Shown: positions 6,310-34,280, counted from the first letter of the stretch. The stretch is DNA of 64,000 bases from Planctomycetota bacterium (GCA_009908915.1 JAAAOJ010000062.1:5594-69593); one strand, 5' to 3'. Program-made: numbers and translations. The notes: generated from the sequence alone by a model not told the origin.

Positions 6310-7098
6310 ATGATTATGACATACCTGAAGACCACACACACGAGGCGAACACTATTGCTCCCGCTGCTAGTGGCCTCGGCAGGCTTGCTGTGCGGCTGCC
6401 CGATTACGCAGACGCAGGACACCCCCGCCCGCCACTTCTCTGAACGGGCGCCCGCGAGCGGCATGACGTACTGCATCTACGTGCCGAGCAATTACACCAG
6501 CGAGACAGCCTGGCCGCTCGTGATCACGCTGCACGGGACCTTCCCGTGGGACGTCGCAGAGTTTCAGATCCGCGAATGGAAGGCCCTGGCCGAGAAACGC
6601 GGGTTCATCGTCGTCGCGCCGAAGTGCGGATCGCTGAGTACGCAGGGCATTCTGCCGGTCAGCCAAAGCTGGCGGCTGAGCGACCTCGCCGAGGACGCGC
6701 AGGGCATCCTCGACGTGCTCGAAACCGTCTCGCGCAAGTACAACATCAAACGCAATCGCGTACTGCTGACCGGTTTCAGTTCCGGCGGTTATCCGATGTA
6801 TTACACCGGGCTGCGGAATCCCGAGACATTTCACGCCATGGTCGCCCGAGCGTGCAATTTCGAGCGGGCCGTCGTGGACGACGCGGAACTGACTCCGCAG
6901 ACGCGACGGATTCCGACGATGATTTTCGTCGGCAAGGATGACCCGGCGCTGCAGGGCGATTCCTGGGCGGCTTATCGTTGGCTGCATCGACACGGCTGGA
7001 ACAAGCACTCAGCCAAGCGGAAGGAAACGGACGGTGGCCATCTGCGTCGGCCGGAGACAGCCTATAACTACTGGGTGAACTACTTCGGCGGAGGATAG
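6310..7098 (+). CDS. alpha/beta-hydrolase esterase (PHB depolymerase / LpqC-like), lipoprotein
   Basis: Lipobox LLCGCP. Nucleophile elbow GFSSGG (G-x-S-x-G) and an LHG oxyanion region (ITLHGT). Confidence 0.75.
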   Translation: MIMTYLKTTHTRRTLLLPLLVASAGLLCGCPITQTQDTPARHFSERAPASGMTYCIYVPSNYTSETAWPLVITLHGTFPWDVAEFQIREWKALAEKRGFIVVAPKCGSLSTQGILPVSQSWRLSDLAEDAQGILDVLETVSRKYNIKRNRVLLTGFSSGGYPMYYTGLRNPETFHAMVARACNFERAVVDDAELTPQTRRIPTMIFVGKDDPALQGDSWAAYRWLHRHGWNKHSAKRKETDGGHLRRPETAYNYWVNYFGGG

Positions 7099-7115
7099 TC
7101 CGGCCGCTCTGTTGA

Positions 7116-8258
7116 CTATCGGTCGGTCGGTTTGTCTCGGAGGGCCTCGCCGTGAAGCGCGGCCGGAAAACCCTCTCTTATGCCTTCGACGGGCGCGCCG
7201 ACCGTTCGGCGGAACCAGCACTGCTTGGGCTGGGCGCCGGCGGGCAGTTCGTAGACCCAGTCGACCGTCAGCATGTCGGGATGCTCGCCCGTGTTGTTCT
7301 GCTGGATGACACTTGTCGGACGTTCGACGATCAGGCCGGCGGGGACGGCCTCGTCCTCGCCGTACCAGACGGCCTCGAGCTTGCGGCGCTTGCGGCTAGT
7401 GGTATTCCAGAACGTGTAGGCCACGGGATAGGCGTCGAAGGGTCGGCCCTGGGCGTCGAGGCACAGCAGGCGGAACTGCGTCGCCGGCAGCCGCCACCAG
7501 TTATCTTCAAGGTTGGCGGCATCCTGGCCGATACTCACGCGGACGATGCAGACGTCCGACTCGGCCGACCTGGCCACGAGCGGGTAGGGCGGCAGATCGG
7601 GCAGAAGCGTGTTGGCCTCGGCTTCGCTGAGTTTATAGACGGCATCGAGCAGGAAGTCGGCGGGCATGGCGTCGACGCGGCCGCCCCGGCCGGTAGTGTT
7701 GCGCCCGCAGAACTGCTCGAGAAGAAGATGTGGGTGGTGGTCGGCCAGACGCCGGCTGCCGCGCATCGAGCCGCCGGAGAGCATCTCGCCGAAGGCCAGC
7801 ACCGCTTCGTCCGGGTAGAACGGCAGGAGTCGTTGGGCGCGGGTGAGGTCGTCCTCAAACGGGCGCCAGATCAGGATGTTCCGTCCAAGCGGGGCCATCT
7901 GGATGACAATCATCAACACGCCGATGGCGAACATGCCGGTCAGCAGGCCGAACAGTCCGCCACCGATGCGGTCGATGATGACATTGAAGACAATGTCGCC
8001 CCGGATGAGGATGTTGCCCACCGTCCGCAGCAGCAGCAGCGGTACGATGAACAGCAGCATCAGAGCGACACCCTCGGCGATTTCAGGCTTCATCTGGTAC
8101 AGGCTGGCCGTGCTCGCCAGGCCTTCGTAGCACGTGATGGCCAGGCCGGCCGAGATGATCGTCCATGTCGCCAGCAGCAGGGCGGAGAACAGTCCCTGCC
8201 GCATCTGGAAATAGCCAATTCCGAGAATCAAGATGGCGGTCGCTGCGACGAGTATCAT
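7116..8258 (-). CDS. CvpA-like membrane protein with a large C-terminal domain
   Basis: Start chosen at MILVAATAILILGIGYF (CAT at 8256-8258). About four TM helices in the first ~160 aa resemble the CvpA N-terminus, followed by a ~220-aa soluble domain. The upstream 49 codons in the ORF track are rejected. Confidence 0.5.
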   Translation of the reverse strand: MILVAATAILILGIGYFQMRQGLFSALLLATWTIISAGLAITCYEGLASTASLYQMKPEIAEGVALMLLFIVPLLLLRTVGNILIRGDIVFNVIIDRIGGGLFGLLTGMFAIGVLMIVIQMAPLGRNILIWRPFEDDLTRAQRLLPFYPDEAVLAFGEMLSGGSMRGSRRLADHHPHLLLEQFCGRNTTGRGGRVDAMPADFLLDAVYKLSEAEANTLLPDLPPYPLVARSAESDVCIVRVSIGQDAANLEDNWWRLPATQFRLLCLDAQGRPFDAYPVAYTFWNTTSRKRRKLEAVWYGEDEAVPAGLIVERPTSVIQQNNTGEHPDMLTVDWVYELPAGAQPKQCWFRRTVGAPVEGIREGFPAALHGEALRDKPTDR

Positions 8259-10028: not shown

Positions 10029-11210
10029 CTACATCTGGCGGTTGACCAGCCCGGTCTTGGCCTGGCTGATGCCCTTCATCATCATCCGCAGTTCTTCGGC
10101 GTTGGGGGCTACGCTGTAGGCCGCCTTCGGGTCGATCAGGTCTTTTTCGATCAGGTCGAACAGGCTTCGCGAGAAGCACTGCATGCCGTCGCCTTCGCCG
10201 GAGCGGATCACGTCGGCGAGGTCGGCGTCTCGACCGTCCTCGAGCAGCCCGCGGACGGTGGCCGTGCTGAGGAGGATTTCGACGGCTGGCACGCGGTCGA
10301 TGCCGTCGGCCACGCTGGGCAGGAGCTTCTGGCAGATGATGGCCTGAAGGTTGTACGCGAAGGACTGCATGATGTTGTCCCGCGATTCCGGCGGGAACAT
10401 GTCGAGGATACGGCTGACGGTCTGGGGAGCCGTCGAGGCATGCACCGTGCCGAAGACCAGGTGACCGGTCTCGGAGGCCTGCAGGGCGGCCTCAAAGGTA
10501 TCGCGGTCGCGCATCTCACCGATGAGCACGATGTCGGGGTCCTCACGCAGCAGGCTGCGCAGAGCGTCCTGGAAGCTCTGGACGTCGATTCCGATTTCGC
10601 GCTGGCTGATCAAGGCCTTCTTGTCCTCGTAGAGGTACTCGATGGGGTCCTCGATGGTCACGATGTGGCAGCGTCGCTGGGTGTTGATGTACTCGATCAT
10701 CGAGGCGATGGTCGTACTCTTGCCGCAGCCGGTCGGGCCCGCCAGCAGGACCAGTCCGCCGCTGGCCTGCGTGACCTTCTCCAGTACAGGCGGCAAGTGC
10801 AGCTGCTCGAAGTTCGGGATGTTGCGCGTGACGCGCCGTACAGCGATGCTCGGCTCGCCGCGCTGCAGGAAGATGTTGATGCGGAAGCGGTCGCCGCCGG
10901 GTTCTTCGTGGGCGATGTCGACCTGGCCGTGGTGGACGAAGTAGCTGCGCTGTCCGCTGGTCAGCAGACTGTCGGCCATCTCCTCGACCTGCTGGCGGGG
11001 CAGAGGCTCTTCCTTCACCGGCCGCATCTGCGACTTGACCCGCACGTGCGTGACCGAGTCGGTCTTGATGTGAAGGTCGGAGGCCCCGACCTTGGCCATC
11101 AGCTCGAAGTAGGTCTGCAGCTTGGTGGGGATCTCGCGTTCGTTCCCCTGATGGCCAGCGTCGAGTGGCGGTGCGGCGTCTCTGGCGGGTGGGGGGGTTG
11201 GCTCGCTCAA
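10029..11210 (-). CDS. pilT: type IV pilus twitching-motility ATPase PilT
   Basis: Intact Walker A ([10 protein letters not shown]), Asp box/Walker B ([14 protein letters not shown]), His box ([10 protein letters not shown]) and an N-terminal GASDLHIK motif. Apparent TTG start; its start region overlaps the hisF stop by 4 nt. Confidence 0.85.
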
Positions 11211-28303: not shown

Positions 28304-29746
28304 TTAAGCGGCCTTGCGGGCCTTGCGGCGGCGGGCGAGTATGCCCAGCCCCCCCATTCCGAGGACCGCGAGGATACCGGGCTCGGGGACTTCCGCCGTC
28401 GGGGCAATGTAGATGCGGTTCTCGGGGAACCAGGTCCGCTCGCCCGTGATGGGATCTTCGTAGTAGACCTGCCCGTGGGCCAGCGTCTGCGTGTTGTCTA
28501 CGCCGAGGATAATCGGGGTTGCATCAACCTGGGCGTTGTTGCCGGGCTCAAAGCCCCAGTCCGTGCCGAAGTCCCAGACAACGAGCATTTCGATGTCATC
28601 GAGGGTCGTTTCGGCGAGGTCGATGCGGATGACCTGCTGATCGACCCAGAAGGGGACGTCGCCGCCGCTCGTGCCGGCCTGACCGGCCAGGCCGCCGATG
28701 ACGCCGCCGTCGCTCGACCGCTCGGTGTACTCGCTGCGGGTCTGGAAGGCGTCCTGGTACTCGTAGCCGAGGACCGCCAGGATCTCGGCGGCCGTGCGGT
28801 CGCTCAGCCCGTTGACCCAGCCTGCCAGCGTCTGTGGGTCGACTTCTTCGGACTCCATCGAGGCAATGATCGTATCAATCTCCGCGTCGGTGAGGTTCTC
28901 CGGCAGGTTGGCCGTGTACCAGTCCTTGCGTTCCTGGTTGGCAGCGTAGGTGTACTGCTTCAGGGCGTCGTCGAACTTCACCGGGTAACGCAGGCCTGTC
29001 GTCGGGTCAGCCGCCAGGTGGCTGATGTCGTTGGCCTGTGTGATCTGCGGGTTCGAGACGTTCTCGCCAAAGCCGTCGATCGTACCGGTGTACTGGCCGT
29101 TGTGGACCAGGATATCCATATCGACCCGGCCGGCCGGATCGCCGCTGCCGCCATTGCCGGGCTGGACAGCATTACTGGTCCAGCCGAGAGCCCAGCCGTT
29201 CGTGCCGGCGTACTTCTCGACGTAGTAGTCGCTGCGGGCCTGTTCATAGCCCGAGTCGCCGAAACTGGTGTCCCAGTACGTGGACGTGTTGTTGTCCGAC
29301 TGGCTGTAGGTCATGTAGAACGACAGCGTGTTCTCGTACTGCTTCGGCCCCCAACTGACAACGTCGGTGCCGGGATAGGTCTTGTCGGCGTAGTTCCCGG
29401 GCGAAACAGGGATATCGCCGTCGCCATCCTCGCCGCCGCCGAAGACCGTATCGTCCATCTCGTGCCACGCGTTCATCTGCGTTCCGCTGGAAACGGGCGT
29501 CCACCAGTTCTCAAAGGTAGCGACCCTCGTATCGCCGGGGTTGAGGATACCTTCGGTGGTGCTGCTACCTTCAGCGAACATATACCACGTCTTGACGGCA
29601 TCGCTCCGCAAGGGGCGATAGCCGTGTTCGGTGACCATGTAGTTCGGGTCCGGCTCGACGACGGTTCCGGCCAGGCCGGTTGTCGCCGTGAGCATGACCA
29701 GGAGCAATCCCAGGCCGATCAGATTGTTGAGCATTGTACATTTCAT
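28304..29746 (-). CDS. PEP-CTERM sorting-domain protein (secreted, exosortase substrate)
   Basis: N-terminal signal peptide and a C-terminal VPEPGILAVLGMGGLGILARRRKARKAA, matching the PEP + TM helix + Arg-rich layout of a PEP-CTERM domain. Asp/Gly/Thr-rich body. Start at MKCTML. Confidence 0.8.
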   Translation of the reverse strand: MKCTMLNNLIGLGLLLVMLTATTGLAGTVVEPDPNYMVTEHGYRPLRSDAVKTWYMFAEGSSTTEGILNPGDTRVATFENWWTPVSSGTQMNAWHEMDDTVFGGGEDGDGDIPVSPGNYADKTYPGTDVVSWGPKQYENTLSFYMTYSQSDNNTSTYWDTSFGDSGYEQARSDYYVEKYAGTNGWALGWTSNAVQPGNGGSGDPAGRVDMDILVHNGQYTGTIDGFGENVSNPQITQANDISHLAADPTTGLRYPVKFDDALKQYTYAANQERKDWYTANLPENLTDAEIDTIIASMESEEVDPQTLAGWVNGLSDRTAAEILAVLGYEYQDAFQTRSEYTERSSDGGVIGGLAGQAGTSGGDVPFWVDQQVIRIDLAETTLDDIEMLVVWDFGTDWGFEPGNNAQVDATPIILGVDNTQTLAHGQVYYEDPITGERTWFPENRIYIAPTAEVPEPGILAVLGMGGLGILARRRKARKAA

Positions 29747-30909
29747 GATGAGCAATCTCCCTTCACCTCACTCGGCGAGCAAGCCGTGTGGGCAAAACGT
29801 GTACCCAGAGCAGCAAGCGATGCTTTGGCGTGTGATGAGCGTTCATCTTCCGGTGGTCAGACATATCCCAGAGATCGTCTGGCTGACCGGACAACACGCC
29901 ACGTGCTGCTGCTCGAACGTCCCGGCCGGCGAGTAGGCTGATTGAGCGTCAGCCGCGGCGCCCGCAGGCCAGGTCAGGGTTCTGCAAACGTGCAGGTATT
30001 CACTTGTGTGACTCAGCAAACAAGGCTAAGTAACGTTCTAAAAGGCGGTTACACGTTTCTCCTTTGAGCAAGAGAGCCTTTCGTCCTTAGCATTGTCGGT
30101 GAGCCCGGGAGGAGCTCGCTATTGTATAGCACACTTCCTTTCTTCCGGCAGGGTGGTGCAAACTGGGAAGCAGTAAGGCGGGATTGAGCGATCCCGTTTG
30201 CCTGACCAAGCCGTTGCTGCATCCTCCAAAGGCGCGCAACGTAAGCACGCTTAGTCAGTTACCGCATATCCGAGCAGAGCATCGAGCCGGATCTTTGGCC
30301 CCGTGGGGCCGGTCCCGTCCAGATCTTCGGTGAGCGCCGAAGCCTGAACCTTACAAGCACAAACTCTCTCTGACCTCTCTCGTCGTCAAACCAAGGCGAA
30401 GAGCGTTTTTGCTTTTCAACCGTTGTTACCCTAGAACTACAGCAGGGCGGTCAGCGGTTTCGTCGGGACGTCTTACGGTCCAATCGAATGTGAAAAGCCA
30501 ATTTGCCGTTCGTGACATCTGCCTGGCAGGCCCCAGCCTCATAGCCGGTTGAGCACAAACCCATCATGCAGGTGAACAGTCACGAACTGCGGAGAGAAAG
30601 GGAGCCATGGTCCAGAGCCATCGAGCAGAGCTGTTCGGTTTCACTGAGCACATGAGCAATATCTTTCTCTGAGCACTCATCAGTCTATACCGAATCGACA
30701 CCGGCGTCAAGGCAAAAAACAGCATCCAGAGGAAATTTTCAACAGGGCGGACTGGCAGGGCGGCAACCACATTATCAGCCCGTTTGGAAATTGGTCGCAT
30801 CCCCGACCCGACGTCGCGGCACTCTCAACATGTATGGCCCTGCTACAGCACGATGATTGCGCTACCCAACGTCCGAAGGTGTTGAGCCAGCCAGGTGGCC
30901 ACGTATCCT

Positions 30910-31187: not shown

Positions 31188-31342
31188 TTTTGGGTTTTTT
31201 GGGGTTTTGGACCCTCCCTAGTCCCAGAATTCCAATAAGTCCGATAATATATATTATGTGGCGCTAGGGGGTTTATTGCAGCGAACGCTGTCGGGAATTG
31301 CTCGAAATGGCCGTGTAGCGGTCACATTCTCACAGATGTCGG

Positions 31343-31384
31343 CACAAAAACTGGCCTCCGAAGGACCGCTGCTCTCCGGAGGCC
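31343..31384 (-). terminator. minus-strand intrinsic terminator downstream of the small-protein operon
   Basis: On the minus strand: GGCCTCCG-gagagcagcggtcctt-CGGAGGCC followed by AGTTTTTG. Confidence 0.5.
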
Positions 31385-31413
31385 GTGTTTCTGCCTTAAC
31401 GTTTCGTCCCGGC

Positions 31414-31704
31414 TCAGCGGGCAAAGATTCGCCCAAGGTCAACGCGGTCGTCGACAACCTGGACTGTATTGCGCGACGGGTCTGTCGCGTACACGAGCAG
31501 TTTCTGCTTCGGGATGTCGATGACGTACAGCAGCGATGACGAGTCTGAAATCTGGCCCGTGGCCATAATGTAGTCGCCGGTCATGGTGCGACTGGTTGTG
31601 GCCGCCTGGGCGGACTGGCTCTTCCAGGAGCCGACGACAAGGACGCCGAGGACAACGGCTGTGACCATCAGCATTGCGATCAGTGTATTCTGGTTCGTCT
31701 TCAT
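31414..31704 (-). CDS. small secreted protein, paralog A (~96 aa)
   Basis: Signal peptide and an AGGTGA ribosome-binding site. Clear paralog of the next gene: DYIMATGQISDSSSLLYVIDIPKQKLLVYATD aligns with DYVAAVGEISSDYDALFITDLASRRMVALKWD. Confidence 0.55.
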   Translation of the reverse strand: MKTNQNTLIAMLMVTAVVLGVLVVGSWKSQSAQAATTSRTMTGDYIMATGQISDSSSLLYVIDIPKQKLLVYATDPSRNTVQVVDDRVDLGRIFAR

Positions 31705-31756
31705 GGTTTCACCTTACGGGTTGAGTGTCGGGGGTTAATCTCGCGAGGGTCGCCGT

Positions 31757-32035
31757 TCAGCGCCCGCCGAAGTCGCTTTCGAGGTCGTGCGGACCGAAGG
31801 CGACCATTCGTTGGGCGTTCTTGTCCCATTTGAGGGCGACCATGCGTCGACTGGCGAGGTCGGTGATGAACAGTGCGTCGTAGTCGCTGGAGATCTCTCC
31901 CACGGCGGCGACGTAGTCCGTGCTTTTGAAGCTCTGGGCCTGTGCGGGCGCCATGTTCAGGTGGATCAGGCCGGCCAGCAGAGCGCCGTTGAGGACGATC
32001 AGGCCGACGATCATCATGCGTTTCATCTCGGTCAT
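31757..32035 (-). CDS. small secreted protein, paralog B (~92 aa)
   Basis: Start at MTEMKRMM, with a GGGAGA ribosome-binding site 7 nt upstream. Signal peptide. Paralog of 31414-31704. Confidence 0.55.
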   Translation of the reverse strand: MTEMKRMMIVGLIVLNGALLAGLIHLNMAPAQAQSFKSTDYVAAVGEISSDYDALFITDLASRRMVALKWDKNAQRMVAFGPHDLESDFGGR

Positions 32036-32186
32036 TGGATTCTCCCGTCTGTGTAGTCTGTCTAATCTGTCTAGTCCGTGTGGCCAAAGTCGAGGCGGCA
32101 ACGAGCCGTCCCGACCGGGTTATCGGCAATGCGTCACACGAATGGACACACGAGTGAGCCCGTGGTTTGCGAGCCAGGCCGGTTTC

Positions 32187-32399
32187 TCACTCGTCTTCCA
32201 GGTGCGACCGCCTGGGATTGTGGAACACGGCAAGAAGTACGGCGATGAGCGAAAGCCCCGCCAGGGCGATACCAACGTATGGCACGCCGTTTTCAACGTC
32301 CGGTGCTTGGTAGTTGTCGCCGGCCTTCGCGAGTGCTGTTGTCGCCAGCACCGACAGAGCAGCGGCGACCCGTCGTGTCCAGGAGCGTGTGAGTGTCAT
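32187..32399 (-). CDS. small (70 aa) protein with N-terminal signal and C-terminal TM anchor plus basic tail
   Basis: MTLTRSWTRRVAAALSVLATTALA signal, then ...VPYVGIALAGLSLIAVLLAVFHNPRRSH. Weak ribosome-binding site, so low confidence. Confidence 0.35.
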   Translation of the reverse strand: MTLTRSWTRRVAAALSVLATTALAKAGDNYQAPDVENGVPYVGIALAGLSLIAVLLAVFHNPRRSHLEDE

Positions 32400-32850
32400 G
32401 GACGAATTCTATCCGCAACCGAGAGGCGAATGCAACACCACCCTGCCAGAGCGATTTTCACAAGAGGCGGGTGATGTCCGTCGCCGCGGCGGAGAAGTCC
32501 TAGACCCCATTGCCAGCGTCTACCATTTCTAGCTGCGCGGGCTGGCCATGGCGACCCGGCCAGACATGCCGTTTCGTAATGCACGCTTCGCTGGGCCATG
32601 ATCCCCGATCTCGACCTGTTGCATATATGTGTTGCCTTACACATGTTGCCAATGCCATATGTTCCATCTGTTGCCGCGACAGTGCTGCGTATGTGCGCGG
32701 TTCAGCACCTGCTGGACCGCGCTTTGGGAAACACCGGTTCGGCACTTCCCCCGGAATGCCGTTGGCACGGCTGGACCGCGTGATCCTGAAATTTGCTGGT
32801 GCAGCAGGTGCTGCGCCAGCCACGTGACGGTTACCGCACTCACGTGATGA

Positions 32851-34143
32851 TTACTGCAGCCACTTGCCCGGATCGTCCAGGAACGTCGTGGCGTCAATGT
32901 CCGTTTCCTCGCCGCTGGCCATCGTCTTGATCCGGAGGTCATTTCCGCTAAGCAGCACCGAACAACGGGCGCCACGTTTATCCGCCTGCTTGAGTTGCTT
33001 GCCGACGTTCTGCCGCCTGGTGTGGCAGTCCGCGGAAAAGCCGCCCTTCCGCAGCCGGGCCACCAGGTCCAGCACCTTTGGAAACACGCCCTCGACGGCG
33101 TCGATAACAAAGAAATTCAGGCTCTCGCTGGCCAGGTCGGCCGGCAGCAGGCCCTTCTCGTCCAAGAGGATGCCCAGCACCACATCACCCATGCCGAAGC
33201 CCGTTGCCGACTCGGCCGGCCCCCCTACCACCTGCAGAAGATTATCGTACCGCCCTCCCCCGGCGACGGCCCGCTCGCCGGCAGCGATGGCCTCGTAGAC
33301 CACGCCCGTGTAATACGCCAGGCCGCGGACGACCCGCAGGTCAAGCACGCACCACTCGGCGATGCCGTAGGCCTCAAGGTAGCCAAGCAACTGTGAGAGG
33401 CGCTCGACGGTCTGGCCGATATCGACGCGTCCGCTGTAGTCGGTGAGCAACTGCTCGACGGTCACGTTCTCGTGACTGAGCAGGTCGCGGATGACGGAGG
33501 TCTGCTCGTCGTTGAGAAAACTCTCGGCGAGCAGTTTATCGAAGGCGTCTTCGGGCAGCTTGAAGCGTTTGTCGACCAGTGCCAGCACGTCGTCGCGACG
33601 CTCGGTCGGCACGGCCAGGCTGTCCAGCACAGCCGTCCACAGCGGCCGCGAGCCGATGCGCATTTCCACGTCGGCGGGCGTGAGGCCGAATTCTCGAAGC
33701 GCCTCGACGCAGGCGAAGATGCACTCGGCATCGGCAAGGATATCGTCCACGCCGATGACGTCGACGTTCCACTGGAAGAATTCGCGCAACCGTCCCCGCT
33801 GGGGCCGTTCGGCCCGGCAGAGGCGCGGAACGCTGAACCACTTGACCGGGCGCGGCAGTGCGTTGATCTTCTCGGCAACCATGCGGGCCAGCGACGGCGT
33901 GATCTCCGGGCGGATGGCCAGGTCGCGCCCGCCGCGATCGGTGAAGCTGAAGAGCTGCTCGGCGATCTCCTCGCCGCTCTTGACCGTGAACAGGTCGAGG
34001 TACTCGAAGATCGGCGCGTCGTATTCCTCGAAGCCGCAGCGCAGCGAGACCCTCCGCCAGGTGTCGATGATGTAGTTGCGCAGGCGCATCTCTTGCGGGT
34101 AGAAGTCGCGCGTGCCCTTGACGGCCTGGAAGTTGCTCGCCAT
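32851..34143 (-). CDS. hisS: histidine--tRNA ligase
   Basis: KGTRDFYP near the N-terminus, class II motifs (GGRYD), and an anticodon-binding C-terminus. Start MASNFQA (CAT 34141-34143). Confidence 0.9.
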   Translation of the reverse strand: MASNFQAVKGTRDFYPQEMRLRNYIIDTWRRVSLRCGFEEYDAPIFEYLDLFTVKSGEEIAEQLFSFTDRGGRDLAIRPEITPSLARMVAEKINALPRPVKWFSVPRLCRAERPQRGRLREFFQWNVDVIGVDDILADAECIFACVEALREFGLTPADVEMRIGSRPLWTAVLDSLAVPTERRDDVLALVDKRFKLPEDAFDKLLAESFLNDEQTSVIRDLLSHENVTVEQLLTDYSGRVDIGQTVERLSQLLGYLEAYGIAEWCVLDLRVVRGLAYYTGVVYEAIAAGERAVAGGGRYDNLLQVVGGPAESATGFGMGDVVLGILLDEKGLLPADLASESLNFFVIDAVEGVFPKVLDLVARLRKGGFSADCHTRRQNVGKQLKQADKRGARCSVLLSGNDLRIKTMASGEETDIDATTFLDDPGKWLQ

Positions 34144-34280
34144 GTCGGTCAATCCTTGGTGCCCGTTATGAGTAATGCGTTATGAATTCAGGGCAGTCGC
34201 GAATGTAAATGAGGACAGCGATGGTGCCTGCCGCTTTCCATTCATAACTCCGAATTCTTAAATTCGAATTCACGGTCGAT

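Follow-up and report, generated by a model that had tools for sequence, protein, structure and literature searches.

The locus described here raises the question of what is made by three small neighbouring genes, called C, B and A, which lie on the minus strand of a 64-kb stretch of DNA from a Phycisphaerae (Planctomycetota) genome. The GenBank source of this stretch, referred to below as the window, is a Phycisphaerae/Planctomycetes metagenome-assembled genome (MAG). Gene C is located at 32187-32399, gene B at 31757-32035 and gene A at 31414-31704, following the histidyl-tRNA synthetase (HisRS) gene hisS (32851-34152, minus strand). We propose that C-B-A is a conserved operon of the cell envelope, in which A and B would be exported subunits, each predicted to form one blade of a beta-propeller, that pair with each other and probably form a ring, and in which C would be their membrane partner. 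To this reading, for which structural models are the main basis, we give a probability of about one half.

A encodes 96 amino acids and B encodes 92 amino acids counted from its ATG. The longest open reading frame (ORF) of B begins at the TTG at 32101, whereas its homologues begin at ATG. Gene C is an ORF call of 70 amino acids, 39% identical to its orthologue in the related locus L001. The trio is present in GenBank as hypothetical proteins (GVY16_10365, GVY16_10370 and GVY16_10375), and scans of A, B and C against Pfam and NCBIfam gave sub-threshold noise only and no family model. That all three are real coding genes is beyond doubt, because many lineages retain them in conserved synteny.

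In BLASTP proteins A and B are 29% identical over 68 residues (E=3e-6), and the hidden Markov models (HMMs) of the A and B subtypes match each other's members, confirming at sequence level that the two are paralogues. A preliminary description of this locus had reported two adjacent, homologous minus-strand genes for small secreted proteins, and its account agrees with ours in coordinates, paralogy and signals. The shared motifs DY..G.IS and L(Y/F)(V/I).D, as well as the AQA at the end of each hydrophobic N-terminal segment, which it had pointed out, are visible in the alignment. The domain of A reads GDYIM..LLYVID..KLLVY..VQVVD..DLGRIF, and that of B, also a single domain with a predicted four-stranded beta-meander, ends with DF.

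Word-indexed searches with single proteins retrieved only 4 and 1 relatives. An exhaustive profile search with a cut-off of E≤1e-3 detected 530 cluster representatives (50% identity clusters), and 103 of them reach E≤1e-10. Almost all of these proteins are 90-100 amino acids long, align over their full length and fall into two subtypes, the A-type opening with MKNxQNITIxLL and the B-type with MK..IV.L.VLN. The members with source names are each a "hypothetical protein" of Phycisphaerae or Planctomycetes MAGs without a Pfam domain, and neither Pfam nor NCBIfam holds a curated model for the family, in accordance with the earlier remark that A and B could not be assigned to a known one. The A and B sequences show the n-region, hydrophobic core and AxA site of a Sec signal peptide, for which small-x-small is expected 5-8 residues behind the core, the AxA site being found in 122 of 130 A-type and in 14 of 17 B-type members. 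In the A-type the site lies a median of 8 residues beyond the uncharged stretch, and the hydrophobic core is long, with a median of 21 residues. Both proteins are predicted to be exported through this N-terminal hydrophobic segment with its signal-peptidase motif.

The association of A and B is suggested by natural fusions of 147-156 amino acids (P0094, P0119, P0148 and P0154). Three of them (P0094, P0148 and P0154) are composed of a B-type domain, a linker of 5-10 residues and an A-type domain, and none of the three has a further hydrophobic segment. P0119 also shows the two-domain layout, but its second domain cannot be assigned clearly to either the A or the B subtype. The domain order, B then A, is the gene order. 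By the Rosetta-stone argument these fusions indicate that A and B act together, and the missing second hydrophobic segment implies that A can do without its N-terminal segment when it is joined to B. The HMM of gene C found no C gene beside the fusion genes, whose contigs are short and offer little context. Next to the fusion gene P0119, at L033 86-289, there is a 67-amino-acid ORF built like C, with a signal peptide, one transmembrane helix and a short basic tail; it lacks FKNxKRxHL, was missed by the C HMM and might be a remote counterpart of C. A larger relative, P0081 (L030 722-2498), has 383 amino acids, with long Pro-rich linkers between its four A/B domains, and is encoded immediately downstream of a gene for an extracytoplasmic function (ECF) sigma factor.

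The AlphaFold2 model of A comprises an N-terminal helix, a disordered linker with the AxA site, four antiparallel strands (residues 44-50, 56-62, 67-74 and 79-88) and a short helix, with a predicted local distance difference test score (pLDDT) of about 85 for the domain. In the model of the fusion P0094, with a pLDDT >90 over residues 40-149 and a predicted TM-score (pTM) of 0.68, two four-stranded sheets are packed against each other. The modelled A domain and both modelled units of P0094 have the shape of a propeller blade, which is a four-stranded antiparallel beta-meander of about 40-50 residues. In the propeller class four to twelve blades close a ring; by this count a single A or B would contribute one blade, a fusion two and P0081 four. 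When the P0094 model was compared with the PDB by Foldseek, the best matches were almost all beta-propellers, with probabilities of 0.97-1.00. The top match was the lactonase-like 3hfq (probability 1.00, E 6.7e-3), and others included the LGI1 EPTP domain, Sec13, 6-phosphogluconolactonase and the propellers of sialidases and GH43 enzymes. On the two-blade subunit of the Ralstonia solanacearum lectin RSL (PDB 2bt9/2bs6) the model superposes with a target-normalised TM-score (TMt) of 0.53-0.59 and a root-mean-square deviation of 3.5-4.3 Å over about 95 columns, covering the whole subunit. With the model of the A monomer nothing significant was found, and its matches of best probability were propeller blades as well.

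The family alignment shows high conservation in strands 1-3 and low conservation in strand 4, a pattern like that of propeller blades. The sequence LLYVID..KLLVY resembles NHL blades, and a comparison with such blades by hhalign gives P=0.002. In a profile search of the PDB the Pizza designs, which derive from NHL, were the sole matches, the similarity lying in the strand 2-3 motif, and a search of a large library also matched a 778-amino-acid NHL protein. The low E-values for Pizza and for the latter protein arise because near-identical repeats are summed, and they are not counted as proof of homology. The gathering score of Pfam NHL (PF01436) was not reached, A and B giving no match and P0094 an E of 0.05 and 14.1 bits where 20 are required. 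The sequence-level link to propellers is thus weak, so that most of the case is carried by the predicted structures, together with the fusions, the motif and the conservation pattern.

The third protein, C, starts with a signal peptide, followed by the short periplasmic motif D-x-Y-[EQ]-A-P-x-V-E, one transmembrane helix and a conserved tail predicted to be cytoplasmic, FHNPRRSHLEDE, as the preliminary description had it for the upstream 70-amino-acid ORF (signal peptide, C-terminal transmembrane helix and a tail containing basic residues). In the window the sequence reads VPYVG...FHNPRRSHLEDE, with the C-terminus NPRRSHLEDE. Members of the C family share the signature of a signal peptide, DG[YF]E[AP]PxxE, a transmembrane helix and then AFKN[SP][KR][RK][ST]HL[DE], this last motif being present in all lineages with C (14 loci) and the final residues being acidic. 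After cleavage of the signal peptide, mature C is predicted to be a bitopic protein of about 45 amino acids, N-out/C-in.

Genomic contexts were taken from the encoding contigs and from a degenerate DNA-pattern scan of the GTDB species genomes, and were then scanned with HMMs. The pattern scan returned 19 loci, 13 in Planctomycetota and 6 chance matches in other phyla without genes of the family. Each recovered Planctomycetota locus has one B-type gene followed directly by one A-type gene, with C just upstream wherever upstream sequence exists, and the order C-B-A is found in about 14 independent lineages. With an HMM of the C family built here, the gene is detected directly ahead of B-A at E-values of 1e-33 to 1e-11 in 14 independent loci (the window, L001, L005, L007, L009, L013, L014, L017, L018, L021, L023, L026, L027 and L028; L011 is weak). 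The trio, for which a look into related genomes had been suggested, is therefore not an instance of non-conserved ORFs. A wider order, (CxxCxxCC gene)-hisS-HYExAFE-C-B-A, recurs where HisRS is only 45-80% identical, and L009 has C-B-A in another neighbourhood.

Expression signals support, at the level of sequence, one transcription unit for C, B and A with its own promoter and terminator. Ahead of C a sigma-70-type promoter (32406..32435, minus strand) is composed of the -35 element TTGCAT (32435-32430), a spacer of 18 nucleotides and the -10 element TAGAAT (32411-32406), the block being conserved in L001. The end of the -10 element is 6 nucleotides from the ATG of C. A TTGCAn / TAtAAT pair is found 5-10 nucleotides before the start of C in L001, L005, L007, L009, L013, L014, L018, L026 and L027; in L023 the promoter is present, but with a leader ahead of gene C. 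No Shine-Dalgarno sequence precedes the start of C in the window or in the equivalent loci of relatives, and such sequences are present before B and A, where the ribosome-binding sites AAGGTG and GGGAGA of the pair are visible, as had been described. Since the near-consensus -10 element stands only 5-10 nucleotides before the ATG of C, a strong promoter and a leaderless C mRNA are predicted, across distant lineages, with the transcription start site placed by the promoter position. Downstream of A an intrinsic terminator (31346..31384, minus strand) combines a GC-rich hairpin (31384-31353) with UUUUU (31350-31346); its fold over 84-86 nucleotides has -34.9 kcal/mol and a z of about -2.75. A simple consensus scan for terminators missed this hairpin because its loop exceeds 8 nucleotides. 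Comparable hairpins with a U-tract are found after A in L007 (z -6.7) and L026 (z -4.0) and, by eye, in L010, L027 and L028. On the evidence of the promoter and of the hairpin with its U-tract, the earlier notion of a terminator-delimited mini-operon is correct, including the terminator it had placed after A.

The spacer between C and B contains three 9-bp tandem repeats (32047..32076, strand not assigned; Tandem Repeats Finder (TRF) period 9, 3.3 copies, score 46), for which binding of a regulator had been considered. Their existence is confirmed, their role as a regulator site is not. The window has 17 tandem arrays with a TRF score of at least 40, and in the spacer of the 70%-identical relative L001 the repeat is absent and only the ribosome-binding site ACAGAYGGGAGA is conserved, for which reasons the repeats are judged to be background noise that arose by chance and has no functional part.

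In the proposed mechanism C-B-A is probably expressed constitutively, and A and B, with one blade each, would be exported through their N-terminal hydrophobic segments. B and A would then bind side by side in direct contact like neighbouring blades of a propeller, and several B-A pairs would probably join up into a closed hetero-oligomeric ring with an even number of blades (4, 6 or 8), situated on the periplasmic (outer) side of the cytoplasmic membrane, with C as the likely membrane partner or anchor. Most propellers serve as binding platforms, and the assembly might be such a platform in the cell envelope. The complete form of this scheme, in which A and B alternate around a closed hetero-oligomeric beta-propeller that C anchors at the membrane, is tentative, and we consider the odds to be against it.

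Several observations weigh against the proposed mechanism. No Foldseek match of the monomer or of the fusion reaches E≤0.001, NHL or Pizza blades score about 3 bits each with the broad family profile, the hhalign probability for NHL blades is only 12.9%, and the NHL and SGL matches of the family in Pfam are below threshold. The N-terminal helices are conserved, in A at I9, L12, A16 and L19 and in B at an Asn conserved to 90% (VLNG), and may, with their long core and its conserved positions, be retained as transmembrane anchors instead of being cleaved; the near-invariant AxA argues for cleavage. The four-domain architecture of P0081 behind an ECF sigma gene indicates that the domain can serve in other settings. 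Finally, a two-sheet heterodimer fits the data equally well. In that arrangement A and B would form only a 1:1 pair, a small two-sheet beta-sandwich without a ring, acting as a periplasmic adaptor or sensor tethered by its own helices and/or by C, and it might signal via the conserved cytoplasmic tail of C. Each fusion has two domains and no more, and these are modelled as a compact unit by themselves. The heptad-spaced conserved residues and the Asn of the N-terminal helices suggest retained transmembrane segments which interact. The gene slot just after an ECF sigma gene usually holds an anti-sigma factor; P0081 is in this position, and protein A itself has a weak match to an anti-sigma model (E 0.005). 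The faces and edges of blades, if exposed, are normally unstable without closure, however, and the top structural matches are closed propellers together with the RSL subunit, which oligomerises, so that we regard a heterodimer without a ring, which also has the AxA site against it, as a possible but doubtful arrangement.

The preliminary description had offered other ideas, namely that C is a sorting-signal anchor and A and B are pilin-like accessories, so that the trio would assist PEP-CTERM/exosortase sorting or a pilus or secretion apparatus. A PEP-CTERM gene (28304-29755, minus strand, ORF call) is indeed encoded 1.66 kb downstream of A, behind an ORF-poor gap of this length, both in the window and in L001-L004, a neighbour confined to the subclade of the window, with weaker homologues in L014 and L021, and C does end with a transmembrane helix and basic residues. 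But the PEP-CTERM neighbour is missing in L005, L007, L009 and others, and in the window its gene has a promoter of its own and a long leader. C has no PEP motif and no match to the PEP-CTERM models (TIGR02595 / PF07589) at E≤10 in NCBIfam or Pfam; whereas a PEP-CTERM signal shares with it the transmembrane helix followed by basic residues, the passenger of C is only about 15-20 residues and its distinct conserved tail, FKNxKRxHL[DE], has an acidic end. The N-termini of A and B, read directly, contain no prepilin G|F..E motif, no pilin family of Pfam or NCBIfam matches them, their predicted fold is that of a propeller blade, and no pilus or secretion genes are adjacent to C-B-A in the contexts examined. 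This explanation is largely refuted and we consider it very improbable. Highly unlikely, too, is the suggestion that A and B take part in interbacterial or anti-phage conflict as immunity or effector-like proteins. It would suit small, duplicated proteins predicted to be exported, and a single weak Foldseek match to the immunity protein Tni2 (TMt 0.40, E 0.11) points the same way. Against it, the genes occupy a single-copy, vertically inherited site in a housekeeping neighbourhood, next to the CxxCxxCC gene, hisS and HYExAFE, across lineages as far apart as the HisRS identities above; no toxin, Rhs, type VI secretion system or defence genes are found adjacent in the same contexts; and the strict 1:1 pair with its conserved promoter architecture is unlike fast-evolving conflict loci. 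The single copy, the housekeeping synteny and the consensus promoter count against the pilus idea as well.

Among known systems, RSL is one to which the proposed propeller assembly of A and B can be likened, as RSL is also a small exported protein with fewer blades than a propeller, the toroid being completed by oligomerisation, and as the B+A fusion model covers its whole subunit. It differs in that one two-blade chain forms a homotrimeric six-blade propeller, whereas A and B are separate genes for diverged paralogues (24-29% identity), so that any ring would be hetero-oligomeric; moreover, no sequence homology between RSL and A or B was detected, and the operon of A and B encodes a third, membrane protein as well. 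Blade-sized units which build propellers of 5 to 9 blades are found in the NHL-derived Pizza2/Pizza3, in WRAP and in fragments of tachylectin-2; these are laboratory constructs and homo-oligomers, and the sequence score of A or B per blade is not significant alone. With the six- and seven-bladed NHL, SGL and lactonase-type propellers (PF01436, PF08450 and PF10282) A and B share the four-strand meander and the signature of strand 2, turn and strand 3, hydrophobic-Y-V-x-D followed by +-hydrophobic-x-V-Y. The difference is that those propellers have 6-7 repeats per chain against one in A or B, where each repeat has its own export signal.

Beta-propellers are thought to be derived by the amplification of one ancestral blade, and to our knowledge assemblies of one-blade chains are known only from protein engineering. 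The envelope and division machinery of Phycisphaerae is poorly understood. A literature search on the A/B family, HYExAFE, leaderless mRNAs of Phycisphaerae and natural single-bladed propellers retrieved nothing on the A/B family or on HYExAFE. According to published work, engineered fragments of one to three blades are able to assemble into propellers, and among natural propellers the oligomeric ones are "a minute fraction" (PMC6805158, PMC9218822), the blades of natural propellers being "almost always" in one chain (PMC6805158). A natural, widespread and heteromeric system with one blade per gene would therefore be new within a known fold class. If true, it would be the first case of a widespread natural family whose propellers have each blade on a polypeptide chain of its own, and a living counterpart of the postulated ancestral "blade peptide" stage, which is otherwise reproduced only with engineered fragments. 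With its two-blade and four-domain relatives it would also offer a natural system for the study of blade recognition, of the course of fusion and of the rarity of oligomeric forms. The locus in any case flags an unannotated three-protein module, probably of the envelope and apparently with a housekeeping role, which is conserved across Phycisphaerae and has a near-consensus promoter.

Between hisS and C, nearly all related loci carry an intact HYExAFE gene (about 172 amino acids), the product of which has a D...D-x-K motif and the appearance of a PD-(D/E)xK nuclease. In the window only a remnant of about 142 nucleotides is left (32458-32599, minus strand), in which the first ~10 codons are fused to the last ~35 with an in-frame TAG. 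The remnant fails to give a full-length match to NF038001, which the orthologue in L007 matches at E 2.3e-61. Either a lineage-specific gene loss or an assembly artefact would account for it; with HYExAFE reduced to this remnant, C-B-A persists in the window without it.

Downstream of A a non-coding element of about 29 nucleotides, AGCGCAACATAAYATATATTATCGGAC, is located at window 31268-31240 on the minus strand (consensus AGCGC(A/C)ACATAAYATATATTATCGGAC). The window has a single copy of it. Ten further lineages, whose proteins are only 40-60% identical, also carry it downstream of A, in constant orientation and with a conservation of at least 90%. Its positions include L001 ~10462-10490, L010 ~828-857, L014 ~7056-7087, L021 ~7337-7369 and L026 ~7087-7116, and it is also found in L013, L023, L027 and L028. 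In its 11-6-11 layout with an ATAA-N6-TTAT core the element resembles the dif site of Xer recombination, agreeing in 17 of 28 positions with dif of E. coli and in 16 of 28 with that of B. subtilis (dif sequences from PMC3025954). A published survey could not predict dif in Planctomycetes (PMC3025954). The GC skew does not switch clearly at this site and does not confirm a terminus, and no tyrosine recombinase (Xer) was found among ten mid-sized ORFs of the window which were tested.

Searches for RNA genes gave no tRNA in the window and no Rfam match at the gathering threshold over its whole length; between 29700 and 32500 one chance-level match appeared at E≤1. The PEP-CTERM gene has a sigma-70-like promoter, TTGACG-17-TAGACT (30710-30682, minus strand), which is conserved in L001. 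From there a leader of about 930 nucleotides (29756-30710, minus strand) extends to the gene. This leader matches no Rfam family and contains perfectly conserved blocks, including GATCCGGCTCGATGCTCTGCTCGGA and AAGGCTCTCTTGCTCAAAGGAGAAACGTGTAAC, and could be a long structured 5' untranslated region or a non-coding RNA.

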